DNA from: a virus
Taxonomy: Duplodnaviria > Heunggongvirae > Uroviricota > Caudoviricetes
Direction: 5' to 3' (one strand)
Length of the DNA stretch: 32,870 nt
Virus record (IMG/VR): IMGVR_UViG_2737471818_000001
Each line of letters starts with the position of its first letter. Position 1 is the stretch's first letter. Under the pieces are notes generated by a model. The model was not told the DNA's origin. It made no database searches and was given only the letters and a program-made list of their open reading frames with translations. The position numbers and the translations under genes are program-made. Of the stretch, positions 18,257-28,452 are shown piece by piece.

Positions 18257-19111
18257 TCAGCAGTTGGTCAGCAGCTCGTCGCCCGTTCCGCCTTTCGACT
18301 TCTCGCGGCGCGGCTGGCGATAGCTTTCGGTGTTATCGAGGGAGCTTTTCAGGGCGTTAAGCGCCTGCGCGCTCTGCGTGGTCTGGCTGGTCACGTCCTG
18401 CTTTAGCTGTGCAAAGGCGGTTTCCAGCTCAGTGACGCGCGTTTCGGTGGCGGTCAGGTTGGTCTGTACCTGCTCAGAGACGGCGGTCACCGCCTCATGC
18501 ACATCAGCAAGACGGGCGTCATCGCTGACCTGTTTGCGGCTGAAAATCGATTTGACCTTGTCGGTCAGGCTGTTGAGCATGGTCTCGGGAACATCCTCGA
18601 ATTCCAGCTCAGCAAGGGAGGCCACAGAGAAGAGGTCGCCCGGCTGGTCTTTTTTACCGGCGAGCGGGTTCTGCACCGCACGGCTGCAGAATTCGAGGTA
18701 TTCCGTGCCGAGGCTTGCCGGGTCATCGGTCACGGCGAGACCAATCAGATAGCATTTACCGGTATTTGAGAAATTCGGGCGAATTTCCATGGAGGTGTAA
18801 ACCTTCTGACCGGCACGCACCATGCTCACCAGTTCATCGAGCGGTGCAATCTTGCCGAACAGCGCTTTTTTGCCGTTCAGCGCAGAGTCATCACTGATGA
18901 TTTCCGCTTTCACTTCGGTCACGTCGCCATAGCGTTTAAACGGACTGTCAGGCCAGAGGCTTTTGATGTGTTCGAGGTTAATGCGGCAACCGTAGACGCG
19001 CGGGTCAAAGGTATCCGCCATGTCCTGAATGTCATCCCCGTTGATGACACGGCCATCGCAGGTGTCACCCTCGACGCCGATGCGAAACCATTTAGAAACT
19101 TTCTTTGCCAT
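18257..19111 (-). CDS. O: Capsid scaffolding protein O, 284 aa
   Basis: Similarity to P2 gpO as recalled; first gene of the O-N-M-L operon, divergent from P. Confidence 0.9.
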   Translation of the reverse strand: MAKKVSKWFRIGVEGDTCDGRVINGDDIQDMADTFDPRVYGCRINLEHIKSLWPDSPFKRYGDVTEVKAEIISDDSALNGKKALFGKIAPLDELVSMVRAGQKVYTSMEIRPNFSNTGKCYLIGLAVTDDPASLGTEYLEFCSRAVQNPLAGKKDQPGDLFSVASLAELEFEDVPETMLNSLTDKVKSIFSRKQVSDDARLADVHEAVTAVSEQVQTNLTATETRVTELETAFAQLKQDVTSQTTQSAQALNALKSSLDNTESYRQPRREKSKGGTGDELLTNC

Positions 19112-19277: not shown

Positions 19278-21047
19278 ATGACCATTTCAACTGACCTCTC
19301 CCTTTTGCACGACCCGCGACGACAGGCGCGCCTGCTGTTCTGGCAGGGGTTTTCCGTGCCACAAATCGCCGACACGCTGCAGGTCAAGCGCCCGACCGTG
19401 CAGAGCTGGAAACAACGTGACGGCTGGGAGGAAACCGCCCCGCTTAACCGCGTGGAATCCACGCTCGAGGCGCGCCTGATTCAGCTTTATGCAAAGCCTG
19501 ACCTGACGCCGCATGATTTCAAGGTCGCTGATTTTCTGTCACGCCAGATGGAACGGCTCGCGCGTGTCAGCCGCTACGGCCAGACCGGAAACGAGGCAGA
19601 TTTAAATCCCAACATTGCCAGCCGCAACAAAGGCGACCGCCGCAAGCCAAAACGTAATTTTTTCAGCGATGAGGCTATCGAAAAGCTCGAAGAGATTTTC
19701 TTCGATCAGTCCTTTGAGTATCAGCTCAACTGGCACAAGGCCGGTATCGCGCACCGTATTCGCCACATCCTCAAATCGCGCCAGATTGGCGCAACATTCT
19801 ACTTTGCCCGCGAGTCACTGCTGCGCGCCCTGAAAACCGGGCAAAACCAGATATTTTTGTCGGCCAGTAAGACGCAGGCTTACGTGTTCCGAAAGTACAT
19901 CATCGCCTTTGCGCGCATGGTCGAGGTTGACCTGTCAGGCGACCCGATTGTCATCGGCAACAACGGCGCAGAGCTGATTTTTCTCGGGACAAATTCCAAC
20001 ACAGCGCAGAGTCATAACGGCGACCTGTATGTCGATGAAATCTTCTGGATCCCTAACTTTCAGAAACTGCGCAAAGTCGCCTCGGGGATGGCGTCACAGT
20101 CGCACCTGCGCACCACCTACTTTTCAACCCCCTCGACGCTGGCACATGGCGCCTATCCGTTCTGGTCAGGCGAGCTGTTTAACCGGGGACGCAGCAGCGC
20201 CGCCGAGCGTGTCGACATCGATATCAGTCATAAGGCGCTGGCCGGGGGCGTGCTGTGCTCGGACGGACAGTGGCGGCAGATTGTCACCATCGAGGATGCG
20301 CTCGCCGGGGGATGCACGCTGTTTAATCTGGATCAACTGAAACAGGAAAACAGCGCCGATGATTTCCGCAACCTCTTCATGTGCGAGTTTGTCGACGACA
20401 AGGCGTCGGTATTCCCGTTCGAGGAGCTGCAGCGCTGCATGGTCGATGCGATGGAAGAATGGGAGGACTTCGAGCCGTTTTCTGACCGTCCGTTTAACTG
20501 GCGTCCGGTCTGGATTGGCTATGACCCGTCACATACCGGCGACAGCGCAGGCTGCGCGGTACTGGCTCCGCCACTGGTTGCCGGTGGCAAGTTCCGCATC
20601 CTTGAGCGTCACCAGTGGAAAGGCATGGATTTTGCGACGCAGGCCGAGGCCATCCGCGAGCTGACCGAAAAATACTGCGTCGAGTATATCGGCATCGATG
20701 CGACCGGCATAGGCCAGGGTGTTTACCAGCTCGTGCGCTCGTTCTTCCCGGCGGCGCGCGCCATTCGCTACACGCCGGAAATGAAAACCGCGATGGTGCT
20801 GAAAGCGAAAGACACCATCCGACGCGGGTGTCTGGAATACGACACCGGTGCAACCGACATCACACAGTCATTTATGGCTATCCGTAAAACCATGACCAGC
20901 AGCGGGCGAAGCTCCACCTATGAGGCCAGCCGCAGTGAAGAGGCCAGCCACGCGGATATTGCATGGGCAACCATGCACGCCCTGTTAAACGAGCCGCTTT
21001 CCGCCGGTAGCGGTATGCATTCAACGTCAATTCTGGATATTAACTGA
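19278..21047 (+). CDS. P: Terminase large (ATPase) subunit P, 589 aa
   Basis: Similarity to P2 gpP as recalled; GAGG ribosome-binding site upstream of the ATG. Confidence 0.9.
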   Translation: MTISTDLSLLHDPRRQARLLFWQGFSVPQIADTLQVKRPTVQSWKQRDGWEETAPLNRVESTLEARLIQLYAKPDLTPHDFKVADFLSRQMERLARVSRYGQTGNEADLNPNIASRNKGDRRKPKRNFFSDEAIEKLEEIFFDQSFEYQLNWHKAGIAHRIRHILKSRQIGATFYFARESLLRALKTGQNQIFLSASKTQAYVFRKYIIAFARMVEVDLSGDPIVIGNNGAELIFLGTNSNTAQSHNGDLYVDEIFWIPNFQKLRKVASGMASQSHLRTTYFSTPSTLAHGAYPFWSGELFNRGRSSAAERVDIDISHKALAGGVLCSDGQWRQIVTIEDALAGGCTLFNLDQLKQENSADDFRNLFMCEFVDDKASVFPFEELQRCMVDAMEEWEDFEPFSDRPFNWRPVWIGYDPSHTGDSAGCAVLAPPLVAGGKFRILERHQWKGMDFATQAEAIRELTEKYCVEYIGIDATGIGQGVYQLVRSFFPAARAIRYTPEMKTAMVLKAKDTIRRGCLEYDTGATDITQSFMAIRKTMTSSGRSSTYEASRSEEASHADIAWATMHALLNEPLSAGSGMHSTSILDIN

Positions 21048-21048
21048 C

Positions 21049-22056
21049 ATGAAAAAACAACAGAATAAACCCGCCACAACGACCGCCAGCGCGCCGCAAA
21101 AAATGGAGGCGTTCACCTTTGGCGAGCCCTCCGCCGTTCTGGATCGCCGCGATATCCTCGATTATGTCGAGTGCATCAATAACGGGAAGTGGTACGAGCC
21201 GCCGGTCAACTTCTCTGGTCTAGCAAAAAGCCTGCGAGCCGCCGTGCATCACAGCTCGCCGATTTACGTAAAACGAAATATTCTGACGAGCACCTACATC
21301 CCGCACCCGCTCCTATCGCGTCAGGATTTCAGCCGCCTCGTGCTGGATTATCTGGTCTTTGCCAACGGCTATCTTGAGAAACGCATGAGCGTTACCGGCC
21401 AGCTTTTAAAACTGGAAACATCACCGGCTAAATATACCCGTCGTGGCGTCGAGGATGGCGTTTACTGGTACATATCGAGCTTTAACAACCCCCACCAGTT
21501 CGCACCCGGCTCGGTGTTTCACCTGCTGGAGCCTGACATCAATCAGGAGCTGTACGGCATGCCGGAATATCTGAGCGCACTGAATTCGGCATGGCTAAAT
21601 GAATCCGCCACCCTGTTTCGTCGCAAGTATTACCAGAATGGCGCGCACGCGGGTTACATCTTGTACGTCACCGACGCTGCACAAAGCAGCACTGATGTTG
21701 AAGCACTACGCAAGGCAATGCGTGACTCAAAAGGACTCGGCAATTTCAAGAACCTATTTTTTTATGCACCGAATGGAAAAGCTGATGGGATCAAAATTGT
21801 GCCACTCAGCGAAGTAGCAACGAAAGATGATTTCTTTAACATCAAAAAGGTTAGTGCAGAAGATTTGTTGAGTGCTCATAGGGTACCTCCACAAATGATG
21901 GGAATTATGCCTAACAATGTTGGCGGTTTTGGTGATGTTGTAAAAGCTGCACAAGTTTTTGTCCGAAATGAGTTAACTCCTTTACAGGAACGGTTCAAAG
22001 AACTAAACAACTGGTTAGAAATGGACGTTATAAGATTTAAAAAATATTCACTTTGA
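21049..22056 (+). CDS. Q: Portal protein Q, 335 aa; the 3' ~350 bp has markedly lower GC than the rest
   Basis: Similarity to P2 gpQ along the whole protein; ATG 1 nt after the P stop; composition changes near ~21680. Confidence 0.9.
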   Translation: MKKQQNKPATTTASAPQKMEAFTFGEPSAVLDRRDILDYVECINNGKWYEPPVNFSGLAKSLRAAVHHSSPIYVKRNILTSTYIPHPLLSRQDFSRLVLDYLVFANGYLEKRMSVTGQLLKLETSPAKYTRRGVEDGVYWYISSFNNPHQFAPGSVFHLLEPDINQELYGMPEYLSALNSAWLNESATLFRRKYYQNGAHAGYILYVTDAAQSSTDVEALRKAMRDSKGLGNFKNLFFYAPNGKADGIKIVPLSEVATKDDFFNIKKVSAEDLLSAHRVPPQMMGIMPNNVGGFGDVVKAAQVFVRNELTPLQERFKELNNWLEMDVIRFKKYSL

Positions 22057-22120
22057 TTTTCGAAATAAACATCTCAACATTATATTCAGCCCTGTAACTC
22101 AAGAACCACATATAATAACG

Positions 22121-22147
22121 TCACAGCCCACTTTATCGGGGCTGTGA
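22121..22147. terminator. Hairpin TCACAGCCC-loop-GGGCTGTGA between the convergent Q and cargo operon
   Basis: 9-bp inverted repeat 5 nt downstream of the cargo partner stop, followed on the minus strand by a U-rich tract. Confidence 0.55.
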
Positions 22148-22151
22148 TAAT

Positions 22152-23264
22152 TTAACCAACCCTTGCTTTTTTATATGGACCACAACTCCAACTAAAGAAA
22201 TTCTTACCTAACTTATACCATTTATCAGAAAGCACTGGTGTTAGGTGAGGATTATATTTTTTTAAACTTCCCTTTTGTATATATTTCAATGTATTACTGA
22301 GCAAATTCTCTCCAAAACCATCATAACTTACACAAGCAGTGTTGCAGCTACAGCGTTTTGATTCGATATACTCACAATCATATTTTATATCAAGCTTCTT
22401 TAATATCGGACGCCAATATGCACCATGTTTTCGATCGAGTTCAAGGGCTGTTTTAAAATCAAAACCTTTTTTATGGTCAATGTAAAATTTTACTGATTCA
22501 TCTACGGAGCAAAGATGCTTAAAGAAAATGAGAGATTTTTCTTTTTGTTGAAATTGACTTTGACTTCTTAATACATCTTCAATTGTCGATAAAGGAACTA
22601 GAGATTCTATTTCATGTACATCTAAAATCTCAACGAAACCTGAGCGAGTGATTTGTGAGCCCAAAAAATGTGAGCAAGTACCCCCGAATGGGGCTCTAGG
22701 ATGTTTTTTGTCATTATCCACAATACAAAAAACTATCTCATTATTTTGAATTGCACGCTCGAATACATCCTTAGTACTGCCCCCACCGCCATTTAGAGCG
22801 ATAAAACCCATTTCGCAGCGAGATAAGTTAATACCTTCGGCATAATGAGCCGCTATAACTCTAAAAAAATCAGAATCCAAAGGATTTTCACATACTATTT
22901 TCGTTTTTTGCAATTGTGCCGAGTCATTAAAATACAATGGACCACAAACAAATTTAAAAGATTCACCGTTCTGAACCCATCTAAATGATTTATCACTAAT
23001 ATTAAAGTCGACAGATACATAAAATGAGACCTGGTTCAAGATAGCATAGTACTCTGTTAGACCCGACAAAGCCTCTTGCGCGTAACTTTTTGATGAAAGG
23101 CTATAAAGCCCGCTTTGATCATTGATAATAGTTTTAAAAAAAACCCTTGCCCCTATAACCAAGTGTTTTTGTTCAGCAAATGCCCGAAGTATATTCTCAA
23201 CCGCTATGGCAAATGAATTATTTAGCACCTTCTCAGGTGTCGCATTTTCGATATGAATCAACAT
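22152..23264 (-). CDS. Cargo protein, 370 aa, uncharacterized partner of the upstream ATPase; possible nuclease-like effector
   Basis: ATG 2 nt after the ATPase stop; low GC; hydrophobic strand followed by acidic motif IVFCIVDNDKK; glycine-rich LNGGGGST; C-terminal Cys cluster CSCNTAC...WSCGP. Confidence 0.75.
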   Translation of the reverse strand: MLIHIENATPEKVLNNSFAIAVENILRAFAEQKHLVIGARVFFKTIINDQSGLYSLSSKSYAQEALSGLTEYYAILNQVSFYVSVDFNISDKSFRWVQNGESFKFVCGPLYFNDSAQLQKTKIVCENPLDSDFFRVIAAHYAEGINLSRCEMGFIALNGGGGSTKDVFERAIQNNEIVFCIVDNDKKHPRAPFGGTCSHFLGSQITRSGFVEILDVHEIESLVPLSTIEDVLRSQSQFQQKEKSLIFFKHLCSVDESVKFYIDHKKGFDFKTALELDRKHGAYWRPILKKLDIKYDCEYIESKRCSCNTACVSYDGFGENLLSNTLKYIQKGSLKKYNPHLTPVLSDKWYKLGKNFFSWSCGPYKKARVG

Positions 23265-23266
23265 AA

Positions 23267-24823
23267 CTACTTACCAGAGAAAAAGCCAACCGGCCAATTT
23301 TGTAGGAAACCATTCTCGTCAAAATAAGATTTCTTAACTATGGTCTGCTGCTTTTCATCTTTTTCAAATACCAGTATTGAAATATCATCCTGTGAAAGAT
23401 TTTCATTTTCCTCAATATATTCACCAAGTGCTTCAATCATGGTCTGGCTATGTGTCTCAAAAATTATCTTCAAATCCACATTGTTTTCTTTTGCTTTAGT
23501 TACTACTTTTGCAAAAATACTTGCTAAATTATGTTGATATGACGGATGTAAATGCAATTCTGGCTGCTCAATGATAAATGTTATAGGTTTTCTAACCGTG
23601 GTAGCACGACGTTCTGTCTCAAGCCAAATGGCTGTAACTATCGGCAAAACCTGAGAGTAACCAAACCCCATATCACTAACATTATAGTTCTCACTATTTT
23701 CACCGGTATTTATTAAAATTGCAAAGTGAGAGCCACTTTGTTCAACCTTAATAATGAAATCAAAATTTAACTTTGTCCAATCTTCAAATTTTGATTTATC
23801 AGCCGGCCTTAATGAATTCAAAAGCATTGCAAGATTGGAACCAGTATGATCTATCTCATTAACCTGTAAATCTTGAAAGCGATAAAATCTTTCTGATGTA
23901 GCACGCAGTGGAGCTATGTACTTTACATTTCTGAATGAATCTGACAAGGATGTATTTATTATATCTATAAGATTATTAATATTCCATCCAATTATAAATG
24001 GATATAACTCATTCATTATTTCATCATGTTGAAGTTCAAAGTTTCTACTAAAAACTTTTTGTTCCTTGAATAGAAAAGCAACTAATTTACTAGCGTACGC
24101 TTTGGGTATAAAGCCAATTCTTTTGAATGCCTCTGTCACTTGATTTATATCAGATTTAGTATGGAAATATTTCTTTATATATTTCGCTGCTGAATCAATA
24201 AATGACAATTCTAATGCCCTGTCATGCCTAGAATGTCTCAAATAGAATGATGTGCTTGGAGGAGGACTATCTTCCTTACCCTTCAAAATTAGATTGGGTA
24301 TGAACTGCCCAAGATTTTTAGCTATTATCCCATCACGCTCTATTGTTTTATCATCTGATTCAATGAGTAACTTAACATTACTGTTCTCATCCATTGAAAT
24401 AAATATTGTTAAATCAGCCAATATAAGCTTAATCGTTTTTGTTTTTGTTTTTTTATCTTTAGAGTAAACAGTCAACTCTGCTTCAACATCTGTTGGTTGC
24501 TTTGCTAAATCAGTAAAACGATAATATGTATATCTTTGTGAAACCTCTGGCGGAATTGAGAGTGAAAAACTGAACGTAATTTCTTTTTTTTCAGAGTTTC
24601 GGGAAAGTACATCTGTAAAATCGCCAAAATCCACATATCGCCCATACCATAGTATTGGACCAGTAGTATTTTCTTCTACAGATTGACGAAGTAAAGGAAA
24701 TGTACGCAATAGGGAACTTTTACCACTGCTGTTCTTACCAACAAATACTGTAATTGGTTTTAAATCAATAAAAGTTTTGTTGACAAAGCTCCTGAAGTTT
24801 TGAAGACCTATACCCTTAATCAT
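23267..24823 (-). CDS. Cargo OLD/ABC-type ATPase (AAA_15/AAA_21-like), about 518 aa from the ATG at 24823
   Basis: Walker A VFVGKNSSGKSSLL; Walker B/D-loop FIIEQPELHLHPSYQ; H-loop ETHSQ; long insert between them. The track ORF extends to a TTG at 24895 that overlaps the cos-like site; the GGAG-preceded ATG at 24821-24823 is the likelier start. Confidence 0.8.
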   Translation of the reverse strand: MIKGIGLQNFRSFVNKTFIDLKPITVFVGKNSSGKSSLLRTFPLLRQSVEENTTGPILWYGRYVDFGDFTDVLSRNSEKKEITFSFSLSIPPEVSQRYTYYRFTDLAKQPTDVEAELTVYSKDKKTKTKTIKLILADLTIFISMDENSNVKLLIESDDKTIERDGIIAKNLGQFIPNLILKGKEDSPPPSTSFYLRHSRHDRALELSFIDSAAKYIKKYFHTKSDINQVTEAFKRIGFIPKAYASKLVAFLFKEQKVFSRNFELQHDEIMNELYPFIIGWNINNLIDIINTSLSDSFRNVKYIAPLRATSERFYRFQDLQVNEIDHTGSNLAMLLNSLRPADKSKFEDWTKLNFDFIIKVEQSGSHFAILINTGENSENYNVSDMGFGYSQVLPIVTAIWLETERRATTVRKPITFIIEQPELHLHPSYQHNLASIFAKVVTKAKENNVDLKIIFETHSQTMIEALGEYIEENENLSQDDISILVFEKDEKQQTIVKKSYFDENGFLQNWPVGFFSGK

Positions 24824-24894
24824 TCCTAGCTCCATTAGTTCAATAAAATCAATCGATTTTGAGACAATCTTAATATCTTTGACAGGCGCGCGCA

Positions 24895-24913
24895 ATGCTA
24901 TCCCCGCCTCGCC
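24895..24913. other. Candidate cos site (cohesive-end sequence)
   Basis: Minus-strand read GGCGAGGCGGGGATAGCAT matches the P2/186 19-nt cohesive end as recalled at about 17 of 19 positions and in the expected orientation between the A side and the Q side. Confidence 0.55.
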
Positions 24914-25195
24914 TGCACGCTTAACGGGTCGCTTTTAATGCAGTTGCATGACCACATAGGATCCGCGTCAGCTCTGGCGGCGCACGAACAGAACGGGCAT
25001 CCCCGACGCATGCAAAGCAATGCACCTGTTGCATGCACGGCTAAAAAACGGGAAATTCGCGGAAAAATGGCATAATAAAACCGGCTTTAATCGTGCCGGT
25101 TGGGGGCGGTCTCTACGGGACAGGCTAACGCCTCGCGGGGCTCGTTGTTCAACCCCGCTGGCACTGAAAACAAGTTTCAGCACCGGCTGCGTTTG

Positions 25196-25435
25196 CTAAG
25201 GTCGACGCGGTGGTGGCTTCGCCATATTTGGTCGCCGAAACGCCTCAATTTTCGGATTGCTGATATCGCTGTATTTGCGGTGATTATCCCGGACGACACC
25301 GGCACACCCGACCAGTTCGTCAGGTGTCAGATTCTCGTTAATCATAATTTGTTGCAGGCGATGCACGACGGCCATCAGCTTAATGTTTTGCGTTGAATGT
25401 ACCGGCGGCACTGGCATCATTCGCATATGACTCAT
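25196..25435 (-). CDS. Hypothetical small protein, about 79 aa from MSHMRMMPVPP
   Basis: ATG at 25433-25435 forms an ATGA overlap with the upstream gene; no recognisable motif. Confidence 0.5.
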   Translation of the reverse strand: MSHMRMMPVPPVHSTQNIKLMAVVHRLQQIMINENLTPDELVGCAGVVRDNHRKYSDISNPKIEAFRRPNMAKPPPRRP

Positions 25436-25896
25436 TTTAACCACCCATTTTTTTTAGCATATGCGACCATCTTATCGGAATATTGCCAGACACCATCATC
25501 AGCGACGTAAGCCCCACCCGAAACGCCGTTAAGCGTTTCATATCCAATAGCCAGCCCTAACGGGTGTAGAATTTCGTGATTAATTCTGAAAACAAGCCCT
25601 TTCTCGCTTAACTCTTTCCAGTTCATTAGGAACATACCGCACTGGACATCTGACATCATTAACTGAAAACTCAGCATCACATAATTTTCCACCCATTCAG
25701 CTAAATCAGTAACGTTTGTCACCCTCACTGATACACGTTTCCCGGTATATCCGTTTACCGGTTCCCATTCATGCAACCCGAGAATATCACCGCTAGAATA
25801 ATCGCGGTCATTGAGACGAAATTCAGCACGTTTTTCCCGAGATATCACCGCGTTAAAATGCTCAGGTGCAATTTTTAACTGATGGATTTTGCTCAT
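25432..25896 (-). CDS. ASCH/DUF3850-like domain protein, about 154 aa from MSKIHQLKIAPEHF, with an unassigned C-terminal extension
   Basis: N-terminal pattern H.LKI.PEHF.AV.S.EKR.EFRLNDRDY..GD recalled as typical of DUF3850; ATG at 25894-25896 overlaps the A stop by 1 nt; lower GC than A. Confidence 0.6.
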   Translation of the reverse strand: MSKIHQLKIAPEHFNAVISREKRAEFRLNDRDYSSGDILGLHEWEPVNGYTGKRVSVRVTNVTDLAEWVENYVMLSFQLMMSDVQCGMFLMNWKELSEKGLVFRINHEILHPLGLAIGYETLNGVSGGAYVADDGVWQYSDKMVAYAKKNGWLK

Positions 25897-28187
25897 TAAC
25901 TCCACTCCTTTTGCATTGAGAATCCCGGCCACTCATCAGCAGCCGCGTATTTGAATTTTTTATCGCCATAAATCACCGTTGCCCCACGCGCCAGCGCTTC
26001 AAGCTCCCACCGTTCCGGGGTAATGCCCTCCTGAGCCAAATCGAAACGAATTTTCGCTATGCGATCCCTTTCAGGTTTTGTCATCCTGGCTGATGGCGCT
26101 TGCTCGCCCGTTTTGAGTGGCTCATTGCTTCTTTGCTGGCGATTTTTGCGAGGGATGCCAGCTTTTAACGCGCCATTAAGCACCTTCATGACGTCTGGCT
26201 CATTCCAGCCGATAACCCCGCGCTCAATCAGATTTAACACCGCTGCGGCTTGCTCAGACGGTGTAGGTGTCATAACTGGAGTATCACCGCCGGTGAGCTT
26301 TCCACAGTTATTGACAGGACTCCGAGGCGCGGCAGAGCCGCTTTTTAAGGTCAAAGGCTCAACGGCCAAAATCTTTGGAACAATGCGCCATTCGGCTGTA
26401 CGGGTTACATGTATGCGGCTCGCCCCGAGGTGAGGGGCATAAATGCCGACCACTCTCTCAATATCTTCCTCATATTCGTTGACCTCATCCGTCACCTTAC
26501 GGGCGACCCTGACGGCCTGCGCATCACGCGGCATGTTTGCCCCACCCTGCGCGATGATATACAGGTCAAATTCACCTTCATCAGCAGCAGCCCGGACAGC
26601 CTCGACCCGGTCGTCAAACTCACTGGCGATACTCACGCCGCGCGGCAGCTTGCGCAGTTCGCGGTAAGCGCCCATTGTCGGCAGACCAATAGGTTTAAAC
26701 TGCGGGATGCGCCATGTAGACGCCCATGCGGTTACGGCTGCGGCGGTATCTTTCAGAGGCTTGCCGGTGTCGTGGTCGAGCTGGCCGTCGAGTGCGTAGC
26801 CGTCGATATTTTTGGCAATGTATTTAGCGATATAACCCGCCGCACCGCCCTGATTAAGATGACGTGACTCAAAGCGCTGTTTTGCCGCTCCCTTTTCGTG
26901 CCCGTCCTCTTTGAGAGCATAACGACGCATAATTTCGTTAATAGCTTTACGCTGACCGGGTTTGCAAAACATCATCATGTGCCAGTGTGGCGTCCCGTCG
27001 TGGTGCGGTTCGACAACACGCATCCCATAAACCTCTAAATCGTTATCTTTGAAAGCGGTGCGTATCAGGCTCCAGATTCGGCACAGATAGCGCTGGCCGT
27101 CTTTTGGGGTAAATGCGGTTTCATTCCAGCCATGATTGAGCTGCACAGTTTTGTTTTCACCTTTGCCGACCTGTCGGGTCGGGTGATACTTCGATGGCGT
27201 GGTCAGCGTGATAAACATCCCCACATCACCAACGCTGGCCGCGTAGCGTTCAATCCCGGCGATAGTGTTCATCAGTTCCATACGACGTATTTCAGGGTTA
27301 GAAATACTCCCCATTACCTTACTGATGAGGTCAATACGTTCACCGGTGACTTTGTTTTCCAGCTCGCAGGATTTCAGGTATTCGAGATTAGCCAAGCGGC
27401 GCGCGTGCACATCGCGGATCGCCATTTTGCTTGCGTAAGGTGAGCGGTCTTTGTTGACCTCACCAGCCGCAATAAGCAGCGCCTCGCGCCAGCGCATCCG
27501 CTGCGCCTTGAGCTGGCTGACCCACCACTCATCTTTTATCAGACGGGAAATAGCAGAAAATGCCATGCGGATCGTCATCTGACCCTTACGGTATTTTTTC
27601 CAGTACATCGGGGTGAAGTTAAAAGCGCGAGCAATACCTGCCACCTGACCGTATAAATGCGCCTGCGCCTCATCGGTGAATAAAGTTTCTTTCCCGCCGT
27701 GCGCCTCCTCCCATGCGTCGCTTAACTCCTCGTATTTGCTCCAGAGTTGTGACGCTATTCTGGCCGCAAATTTCTTAAGCTCTTTGTCATTCATATCAGG
27801 CAGGCGCGTATATTCATCACGCTCAGACAGAAAGCCGCGCGAGACAGAATCATTCATCCCGCACAGCTCGTTAACACGTTCAAGTCGGGGTAACAGTTTC
27901 CGCTCAAAAGTGTTTCTTAGGAAATACAGCCCATCGAGAGGGCTTTTGCTTCGTCTAATGAAGTTATAACGAGAGTTAAACAGTGTTTTCAGGAAAAAAG
28001 GGAGGCGGTCGATTCGATATAAAACACCTTGCACCTGACGGAATTCGGCACGTGTAAGGGGTCTGTCACGACCGATGGCCGCTTGAGGGGCATTCCATGA
28101 GTAAGCGCCGACGAACGTGTCGCCGGTGCGCTTAGATATTTTTGGCAGTAACGAAGAGGCAACTTGCCCCCGAGATTCAACGGCCAT
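25896..28187 (-). CDS. A: Replication initiation protein A (rolling-circle nickase), about 763 aa from MAVESRGQVA
   Basis: Strong similarity to P2 gpA as recalled, including ...VVEPHHDGTPHWHMMMFC... and ...LNQGGAAGYIAKYIAKNIDGY...; ATG at 28185-28187. Confidence 0.9.
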   Translation of the reverse strand: MAVESRGQVASSLLPKISKRTGDTFVGAYSWNAPQAAIGRDRPLTRAEFRQVQGVLYRIDRLPFFLKTLFNSRYNFIRRSKSPLDGLYFLRNTFERKLLPRLERVNELCGMNDSVSRGFLSERDEYTRLPDMNDKELKKFAARIASQLWSKYEELSDAWEEAHGGKETLFTDEAQAHLYGQVAGIARAFNFTPMYWKKYRKGQMTIRMAFSAISRLIKDEWWVSQLKAQRMRWREALLIAAGEVNKDRSPYASKMAIRDVHARRLANLEYLKSCELENKVTGERIDLISKVMGSISNPEIRRMELMNTIAGIERYAASVGDVGMFITLTTPSKYHPTRQVGKGENKTVQLNHGWNETAFTPKDGQRYLCRIWSLIRTAFKDNDLEVYGMRVVEPHHDGTPHWHMMMFCKPGQRKAINEIMRRYALKEDGHEKGAAKQRFESRHLNQGGAAGYIAKYIAKNIDGYALDGQLDHDTGKPLKDTAAAVTAWASTWRIPQFKPIGLPTMGAYRELRKLPRGVSIASEFDDRVEAVRAAADEGEFDLYIIAQGGANMPRDAQAVRVARKVTDEVNEYEEDIERVVGIYAPHLGASRIHVTRTAEWRIVPKILAVEPLTLKSGSAAPRSPVNNCGKLTGGDTPVMTPTPSEQAAAVLNLIERGVIGWNEPDVMKVLNGALKAGIPRKNRQQRSNEPLKTGEQAPSARMTKPERDRIAKIRFDLAQEGITPERWELEALARGATVIYGDKKFKYAAADEWPGFSMQKEWS

Positions 28188-28452
28188 TAGCAGAAAACGC
28201 GGTCTGACACTGCTGACCAATATGCTCGACCTGCTCGCCAATTTCCTCAAAACTGGCCGCCTCACCGGTCAGGATGCCGTGTAATATCAGACCAGATACG
28301 AGCCTGGAAATTGTTGGATAATAACCAACAACACCGAGCCACTCTTTACCGGCGTTCTTTCCTGATTTTGCGGTTTTCTTTTCCTTCAAAATAAATTGAA
28401 ACTGGTCACTAATGACGACGAAACGGTCGCCCACCTCAATATAAATTGACAT
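28177..28452 (-). CDS. Hypothetical protein, 91 aa, in the P2 orf80-83 position between B and A
   Basis: ATG-started ORF overlapping the A start by 11 nt; position only. Confidence 0.55.
   Translation of the reverse strand: MSIYIEVGDRFVVISDQFQFILKEKKTAKSGKNAGKEWLGVVGYYPTISRLVSGLILHGILTGEAASFEEIGEQVEHIGQQCQTAFSANGR

Follow-up and report, generated by a model that had tools for sequence, protein, structure and literature searches.

The question that this locus raises is why the DNA of the portal gene Q changes its composition part of the way along the gene, and keeps the new composition into the cargo genes downstream, while the protein that it encodes remains P2-like to its end. The window, by which we mean the whole stretch of 32,870 nucleotides that was analysed (IMG/VR record IMGVR_UViG_2737471818_000001), is a P2-like prophage of E. 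coli. Its sequence is at least 99.5% identical in 4 complete E. coli genomes, one IMG/VR contig and one metagenome contig, and positions 21400-25000 are 100% identical to a prophage of E. coli strain EC11. An assembly artefact is ruled out because the sequence occurs in several independent complete genomes. An initial annotation had read the change as a homologous recombination junction inside Q, at which the 3' end of the gene was imported together with the cargo from a P2-like donor of lower GC content.

Composition of gene Q and layout of the locus

The genes are in the order P, Q, cargo, cos, two small ORFs, DUF3850 and gpA (25896-28265), and the features on which the argument depends are as follows.

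19278-21047, plus strand: gene P, terminase ATPase subunit, a 589-aa ORF of the GC-rich backbone with a GC content at third codon positions (GC3) of 0.70
21049-22056, plus strand: gene Q, portal protein, a 335-aa ORF (Pfam Phage_portal, E 8e-17)
21612-21677, plus strand: conserved block in which the crossover of the window is placed, the last stretch that is near-identical across all relatives
21676-21840, plus strand: AT-rich Q segment A, codons 210-264, apparently imported and specific to the window-type junction
21841-22056, plus strand: AT-rich Q segment B, codons 265-335 and the stop, common to every carrier of the cassette
22120-22148, no strand assigned: hairpin between the convergent Q and cargo genes, -18.1 kcal/mol, z-score -5.65, within the apparently imported block
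22152-23264, minus strand: cargo gene 2, putative nuclease effector, a 370-aa protein with an OLD-type (OLD/AriB-like) Toprim fold
23267-24823, minus strand: cargo gene 1, ABC-type ATPase (AAA_15 / AAA_21 / DUF3696) by profile matches, GC3 0.26
24824-24888, minus strand: AT-rich cassette leader, 65 bases, GC 0.34, the right end of the apparently imported block
24889-24913, minus strand: cos site, the 19-base cohesive-end sequence at 24895-24913 plus a conserved GCGCGCA, the fixed right boundary
24914-25195, minus strand: conserved cos-flanking region in which the backbone resumes, equivalent to the right end of the packaged genome

Gene P is annotated as the terminase ATPase subunit at the identical E. 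coli loci, and it is 87.7% identical to that of phage ENT4 and 80.6% identical to that of phage 186. Q could be aligned over its full length with Q/W of P2, 186 and PSP3. When GC content was followed in 200-base intervals, it was 0.52-0.55 up to 21699, 0.41 at 21700-21899 and 0.34 at 21900-22099; low values of 0.29-0.41 persisted to about 24890 and a GC content of 0.545 was regained at 24900-25099. Within Q, GC3 was 0.665 for codons 1-209 and just 0.317 for codons 210-335, whereas GC at first and second codon positions barely shifted across codon 210 (from 0.555 to 0.524 and from 0.397 to 0.333, respectively). The maximum-likelihood change point was at 21676, which is codon 210, with a log-likelihood ratio of 19.4 and a 2-unit support interval of 21670-21754, and not one of 2000 permutations of the third positions gave a step as strong as that in Q. 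The compositional step is sharp and it is confined to the synonymous sites of Q. The GC3 of the Q tail, 0.32, is near that of the downstream cargo genes (0.27 and 0.26) and distant from that of P. The AT-rich tract consists of the Q tail and the two-gene cassette, and it ends at 24888, six bases before the 19-base cos site. The switch to AT-rich DNA inside Q that runs on into the cargo, as it was described in the initial annotation, is thus borne out, since both the sliding GC profile and the codon usage show a clear step within the gene; the position and the description of the tail were right, but its length is 126 codons and not 110-120.

Junctions within Q and the edge at cos

The first comparison is with phages that share the backbone of the window and carry another cassette. 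In E. coli S42 (locus L180) and in an IMG/VR locus (L021), gene P and codons 1-209 of Q are 94-97% identical to the window, and on the other side of the block the identity is 97% again from 24889. Between these matching flanks the two relatives carry a cassette of a DUF262 protein and a hypothetical protein, together with a different Q tail, and so the tail and the cassette of the window are absent together in relatives that share its backbone. The collapse of identity was located at 21662-21678, with mismatches per 60 bases rising from 1-6 to 9-24 after about 21649-21678. Almost all of the differences in the tail are at third positions, with A/T in the window and G/C in the relatives. Compared to L180, dS was 0.215 in codons 1-209 and saturated in codons 210-264, and dN in the latter was only 0.032. 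The first run of window-specific differences begins at 21678, directly after the conserved block 21612-21677. In a codon alignment of 170 P2-like Q genes, codons 191-205 (21619-21663) are the most conserved nucleotide block of Q, with column identities of 0.94 and 0.92. Alignment of Q with its relatives, which had been proposed as a way of mapping the breakpoint, therefore places the junction of the window at 21662-21678.

The second comparison is with phages that carry the same cassette on other backbones. The cassette is present in 39 of 5426 complete E. coli genomes, 4 with the window-type junction and 35 with a second type. In L001 and L179, which represent a second and a third backbone, the 5' part of Q is just 87% identical to that of the window (dS of 0.59 for L001), and over 21841-24800 the identity is 98-99%, with a dS of 0.047 in Q codons 265-335. 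Thus, along Q, the dS between the window and L001 is 0.59, then saturated, and then 0.047. The Q genes of L001 and L179 stay GC-rich to about 21840 and have their own GC3 step at about codons 259-264; their breakpoint is at 21841-21887, and the two differ from each other up to 21777. Segment A differs at 32-38 of its 165 bases from L001, L179, L180 and L005, nearly always at third positions, which are A/T in the window and G/C in these four loci, with dS saturated and a dN of 0.03; the amino-acid changes specific to the window in this segment are L for M, A for S and A for P. Segment B, on the other hand, is 98-99% identical in L001, L010, L011 and L179 despite the 87% identity in the 5' part of Q. 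The number of donor codons kept is 126 in the window and about 72 in the other E. coli backbones that have the same cassette. That one cassette has two left junctions, at 21662-21678 and at 21841-21887, means that there were at least two separate crossovers in Q. Judged from the sequence, neither the window-type nor the L001-type crossover ranks first in order or in direction.

In both comparisons, that with L180 and that with L001, divergence changes abruptly at synonymous sites within a collinear Q for one and the same pair of genomes. By these alignments, from which the two junction positions can be read directly, gene Q is a mosaic of a 5' part that belongs to the backbone and a 3' part that was imported. 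The comparisons with L180 and L021 and with L001 and L179 support the initial annotation in its claim that there is a homologous recombination junction inside Q and that the 3' end of the gene travelled with the cassette.

The initial annotation did not notice that on its far side the imported block is bounded by cos itself. As its reverse complement, 24895-24913 reads GGCGAGGCGGGGATAGCAT, which differs at 2 positions from the cos annotated in phage 186. Homology was seen to be regained at 24889 (L180 and L021) or at 24888 (L005, L008 and phage 186) in every comparison, and 24888-25195 is homologous to the cos region of 186, at the right end of that genome, with 87% identity, and 24914-25195 is 97% identical to L180 and L021. 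The leader, 24824-24888, is identical in L001, L002 and L179 and cannot be aligned in relatives that have other cargo. Throughout the cassette the window is identical to L002, and it is inside the 19-base cos sequence that the two first differ. The cargo of the window sits between Q and cos, which is the extreme left end of the packaged genome, whereas in P2 and 186 cos is 167-176 bases past Q and the accessory genes lie across cos (old and tin in P2; tum and orf97 in 186).

Q tails at other loci, the cargo and the search for a donor

The wider sample drew on IMG/VR, GTDB-representative genomes and E. coli for P2-like loci and comprised 153 non-redundant Q genes; the quantity compared was the difference in GC3 between the last 60 codons and the 5' part of Q, negative where the end of the gene is poorer in GC. 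In the 56 non-redundant Q genes that have cos within 250 bases of the stop, this difference was 0.00 +/- 0.05 and in none of them was it -0.15 or lower. In the 61 Q genes that have at least 800 bases of AT-rich cargo before cos, it was -0.16 +/- 0.12 and in 43% of them it was -0.15 or lower. The Mann-Whitney p for the two groups is 4e-15, a value that is descriptive only and overstates independence, as the loci were picked by their similarity to the Q tail of the window and are phylogenetically related. AT-shifted tails are seen only where AT-rich cargo separates Q and cos, and this is a general pattern that was observed directly. The last 60 codons of Q in P2, 186, ENT4 and the 56 non-redundant cos-adjacent genes have a GC3 of 0.57-0.82, so that the AT-rich tail is not common to all P2-like Q genes, and an AT-rich tail as a general property of Q is excluded. 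In P2, where the AT-rich old and tin are beyond cos, the Q tail is GC-rich with a GC3 of 0.72. The corresponding GC3 in the window, 0.27, is the lowest of the 153 non-redundant Q genes.

Downward GC3 steps were found in 37 of 170 loci, roughly 29 of them distinct, and they are scattered over codons 210-321, the window having the longest AT-rich tail among the loci with such steps. Other pairs of phages with at least 96% identity in the 5' part of Q and different cargo have tails that are just 76-86% identical. The same Q-to-cos position differs in gene content between closely related phages, as in the window compared to L180 and L021. In E. coli S42 (L180, 5091-6839) the slot holds the DUF262 pair, in E. 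coli A38 (L005, 6732-8311), whose Q 5' segments are 93% identical to those of the window, it holds two hypothetical genes, and in E. coli 755 (L008, 6713-8601), which has a more distant P2-like backbone (80-83%), it holds retron Ec48. L008 and L180 have shorter AT-rich Q tails of their own with GC3 steps at codons 293-296, and L005 has none. One locus of the sample, L097, is from a record titled Chryseobacterium sp. 18061; it has an enterobacterial-type P2-like Q with statistics matching those of the IMG/VR locus L013, and it is probably a contamination or a mislabelled assembly rather than a prophage of Bacteroidota.

The cargo gene next to cos encodes an ATPase with Pfam matches to AAA_15 (1.5e-26), AAA_21 (6e-19) and DUF3696 (6e-7), and with PADLOC matches to NsnB (7e-55, partial) and to AriA (3e-31 over the whole profile, 1-373 of 373). 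Its start is placed at the ATG at 24823, as in RefSeq and in keeping with profile matches that begin at residue 25. The mechanically called ORF, of 542 aa, extends to a TTG at 24895 inside the 19-base cos sequence; with the ATG at 24823 there are just 65 AT-rich bases between the ATPase gene and cos. A consensus promoter scan for the cassette was no richer than shuffled sequence, and the cassette may be transcribed by readthrough from the A operon across cos. The 370-aa partner has no DUF4435 or PADLOC AriB match, and because it fails this sequence criterion for AriB the cassette was not filed as PARIS. On the evidence of domains and fold the cassette is a putative split ATPase-nuclease pair of the OLD or PARIS type and it is probably anti-phage; as an uncharacterised pair of an ATPase and a Toprim-fold protein it is a reasonable candidate for a defence system. 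In E. coli UTAK-6 (L002, 6842-7864) the Toprim-fold partner is annotated 90 bases shorter than that of the window and the alignment of the two has a 1-base gap within window positions 22200-22399, so that the cassette of L002 is probably frameshifted. The hairpin at 22120-22148, which none of 200 shuffled sequences matched in folding, is at a position that corresponds to tQ of P2 and tW of 186 and is probably a bidirectional terminator; it was missed by a consensus terminator scan because it lacks a T-run.

A search of the GTDB representatives with the 370-aa protein gave no match. A homologous two-gene cassette, with a partner 71% identical, is found in Pectobacterium (L094-L096, 4442-7113), where it is located in P4-like satellites, in the integrase-proximal hotspot between the Ogr/Delta gene and the integrase, and a homologous pair with a partner 61% identical is found at a chromosomal locus in Providencia (L091-L093, 4434-7107). 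These homologues are not adjacent to a Q gene, which shows that the cassette did not always travel with a Q tail.

The donor of the tail was looked for in several ways. No donor was found by blastn (distant and near) with the tail and with the tail plus cassette against 50,697 phage records, where the best match to the tail was 73%, nor by tblastn of the tail against the same 50,697 records, where the best match was ENT4 with 81% amino-acid identity. Among 80 IMG/VR and 80 GTDB-representative loci chosen by similarity to the tail, none had a Q that is AT-rich throughout. A protein search with the 132-aa tail returned mostly fragments. In IMG/VR and the JGI metagenomes, the exact 32-base stretch unique to segment A was found only in copies of the same prophage. 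Outside the carriers of the cassette, the best identity in the phage, IMG/VR, GTDB-representative and metagenome collections was 85% for segment A and 79% for segment B. A tail that is homologous to Q and has a GC3 of 0.32, matching the 0.26-0.27 of the cargo, has a lower-GC P2-like source as its simplest explanation, and we infer that the tail originated in a P2-like phage whose own codon usage was AT-rich. The lower-GC P2-like donor of the initial annotation is in this sense reasonable, but it did not turn up in any of the four collections searched. Since transfers can only keep or shorten the donor tract and the tract of the window is the longest, the window is probably the closest to the source among the sampled phages.

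Routes of exchange and relation to known systems

The best-supported explanation of the locus, and a very likely one, is that a 3.2-kb block, 21676-24888, was swapped into a GC-rich P2-like backbone, the exchange taking place through a homologous crossover within Q on one side and ending at cos on the other. The block would be made up of the last 126 codons of Q, the terminator hairpin, the ATPase/Toprim-fold cassette and the leader. At the left junction two diverged Q genes would have undergone a homologous crossover that was resolved at the 3' edge of the conserved block, codons 191-205 being the last long run of identity that such genes would offer to a recombinase, and the breakpoint does adjoin this high-identity stretch, which is able to support strand exchange. 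The right junction would be the cos site itself, and the recombination enzymes are presumably those of the host, with RecA as the candidate that we infer. Any point in the 3' third of Q can be the site of the crossover, so that the donor Q tail carried along would differ in length from one transfer to the next.

An alternative is that nothing was imported and the AT-rich tail evolved in place, by a mutation bias or by selection tied to the adjoining AT-rich DNA, for example through the spread of H-NS silencing or through regulatory signals. Such a local effect could in principle give the pattern that AT-shifted tails are seen only beside AT-rich cargo, but the step is not graded and takes place within about 15 bases, dS is saturated between phages whose flanks have a dS of 0.2, three backbones with upstream differences of 6-13% share segment B at 98-99% identity, and segment A has its window-specific amino-acid changes. 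The abrupt step, the saturated dS and the sharing of segment B by different backbones contradict compositional drift in place, which we consider extremely improbable. It is also improbable, though less so, that the cassette was inserted between Q and cos by an illegitimate or site-specific event and that the Q tail is an unrelated older polymorphism. The homologues without Q in the P4-like satellites of Pectobacterium and in Providencia do imply a non-homologous entry at some point, and the Q protein varies more towards its C-terminus. Against this, the tail and the cassette are alike in composition, they were inherited together at 98-99% identity across backbones and lost jointly on the same backbone, and no repeats, transposase or integrase flank the block.

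A variant of the crossover explanation is that the exchange started at the cos end, where linear genomes cut by terminase or freshly injected would join or invade by means of their near-identical cohesive ends, and that a single crossover in Q would then complete the swap because the cassette is at the extreme left end of the packaged DNA. We regard this as possible but somewhat short of probable. It fits with the right edge of the block being at the same base (24888 or 24889) in every comparison, with the window and L002 being the same through the cassette and diverging first inside the cos sequence, and with the position of the cassette between cos and Q at the left terminus of the virion DNA, and it is a route on which Rousset et al. 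2022 speculated (PMC9122126). A sharp edge is equally expected, however, if conserved essential sequence simply starts at cos, and an ordinary second crossover in the 300-base cos-flanking region, which is 86-97% identical, would look alike. A more general reading, which we put forward tentatively and think rather unlikely, is that the 3' third of Q is a regular landing zone for cassette exchange started at the cos end in P2-like phages and that AT-rich end modules of a Q tail plus a cassette circulate in Enterobacterales largely independent of the backbones. If true, it would explain the extreme turnover of the hotspot and its position beside cos.

For the swap of the block by a crossover in Q there are several known systems that are alike in part. 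The old and tin genes of P2 (NC_001895) are also AT-rich lysogenic-conversion genes by cos, with a GC content of 0.33-0.35, and old encodes an ATPase-Toprim nuclease of the same fold family as the cargo of the window. The two differ in that P2 has its cargo at the right genome end, on the A side of cos, together with a GC-rich Q tail, whereas the window has its cargo at the left end, on the Q side, together with an AT-rich Q tail; the window also has separate genes for the ATPase and the Toprim protein. PARIS, which is made up of the AriA ATPase and the AriB Toprim/DUF4435 protein, is found in the P4 satellite hotspot and is characterised by activation through the phage anti-restriction protein Ocr and by tRNA cleavage, is similar in that the ATPase of the window is of the AriA type (AAA_15/AAA_21). 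It is dissimilar in that the 370-aa partner of the window has an extra cysteine-rich C-terminal region and no DUF4435/AriB match, and in that the ATPase of the window has DUF3696 and its best PADLOC score is to NsnB. In lambdoid phages modules are shuffled by mosaic exchange at conserved gene boundaries, as is familiar in temperate phages, and homologous recombination among P2 relatives has reportedly been described by Nilsson and Haggard-Ljungquist. The window is like these cases in having abrupt changes of divergence at short conserved stretches through homologous recombination, but its junction is inside an essential structural gene, where it sets the length of the gene that is carried along with a defence cassette.

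Few known sources of anti-phage systems are as rich as the cos-proximal hotspots of P2 and P4, and the genes in them are replaced more quickly than the core genes diverge. The gpA-gpQ hotspot beside cos, its AT-rich defence cargo and its very fast turnover have already been published (PMC9122126; PMC13586616). The locus studied here is alike in having variable AT-rich accessory or defence genes by cos that are swapped between very similar phages, and the cargo of the window lies between gpA and Q, with its leader ending at 24888 next to cos at 24895-24913, as in that hotspot. Rousset et al. 2022 speculated that the cohesive ends and a second homologous event exchange the locus, and called for validation (PMC9122126), and Moura de Sousa et al. 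2026 found almost no linkage of defence genes to core genes when whole proteins were considered (PMC13586616). These papers treat the interval between core genes, whereas here the mapped junctions are one that is variable inside Q, so that the cargo is linked to 20-126 codons at the 3' end of Q, and one that is fixed at cos. In our literature search no report was found of mapped junctions inside Q, of 20-126 Q codons hitchhiking with cargo, or of a distinction between Q-side and A-side cargo at cos. The locus is a clear and well-supported instance, and a modest refinement, of a process that was already suspected and it is not a new kind of element. At the sequence level the mapped junctions support one specific route, in which a homologous crossover within gpQ forms one edge and cos the other, and they show that a portion of a core gene, the terminal 20-126 codons of Q, is linked to the cargo. 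The sequence type of the Q tail and the GC3 steps could be used for tracing the movement of cassettes between phage lineages, and phylogenies of P2-like phages need the 3' third of Q to be masked, since the use of full-length Q will distort them.

Some further features were seen elsewhere in the window. On the A side of cos there is a second and milder GC dip (0.43-0.46) at 25300-25900, which spans the DUF3850 gene (GC3 0.43) and the adjacent small ORFs and is the sub-locus of tin/old in P2. Identity to L002, otherwise 96-100%, falls to 76-79% at 27800-28199 and identity to L001 falls to 79-83% at 27600-28199; the patch, 27600-28400, is within the 5' part of the replication gene A (25896-28265, minus strand) and looks like another mosaic junction. 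At 18400-18999, inside the capsid scaffold gene (18257-19111, minus strand), identity to L001 drops from about 92-94% to 80-85% and that to L002 is 100%, which looks like a further recombination patch in the late genes.
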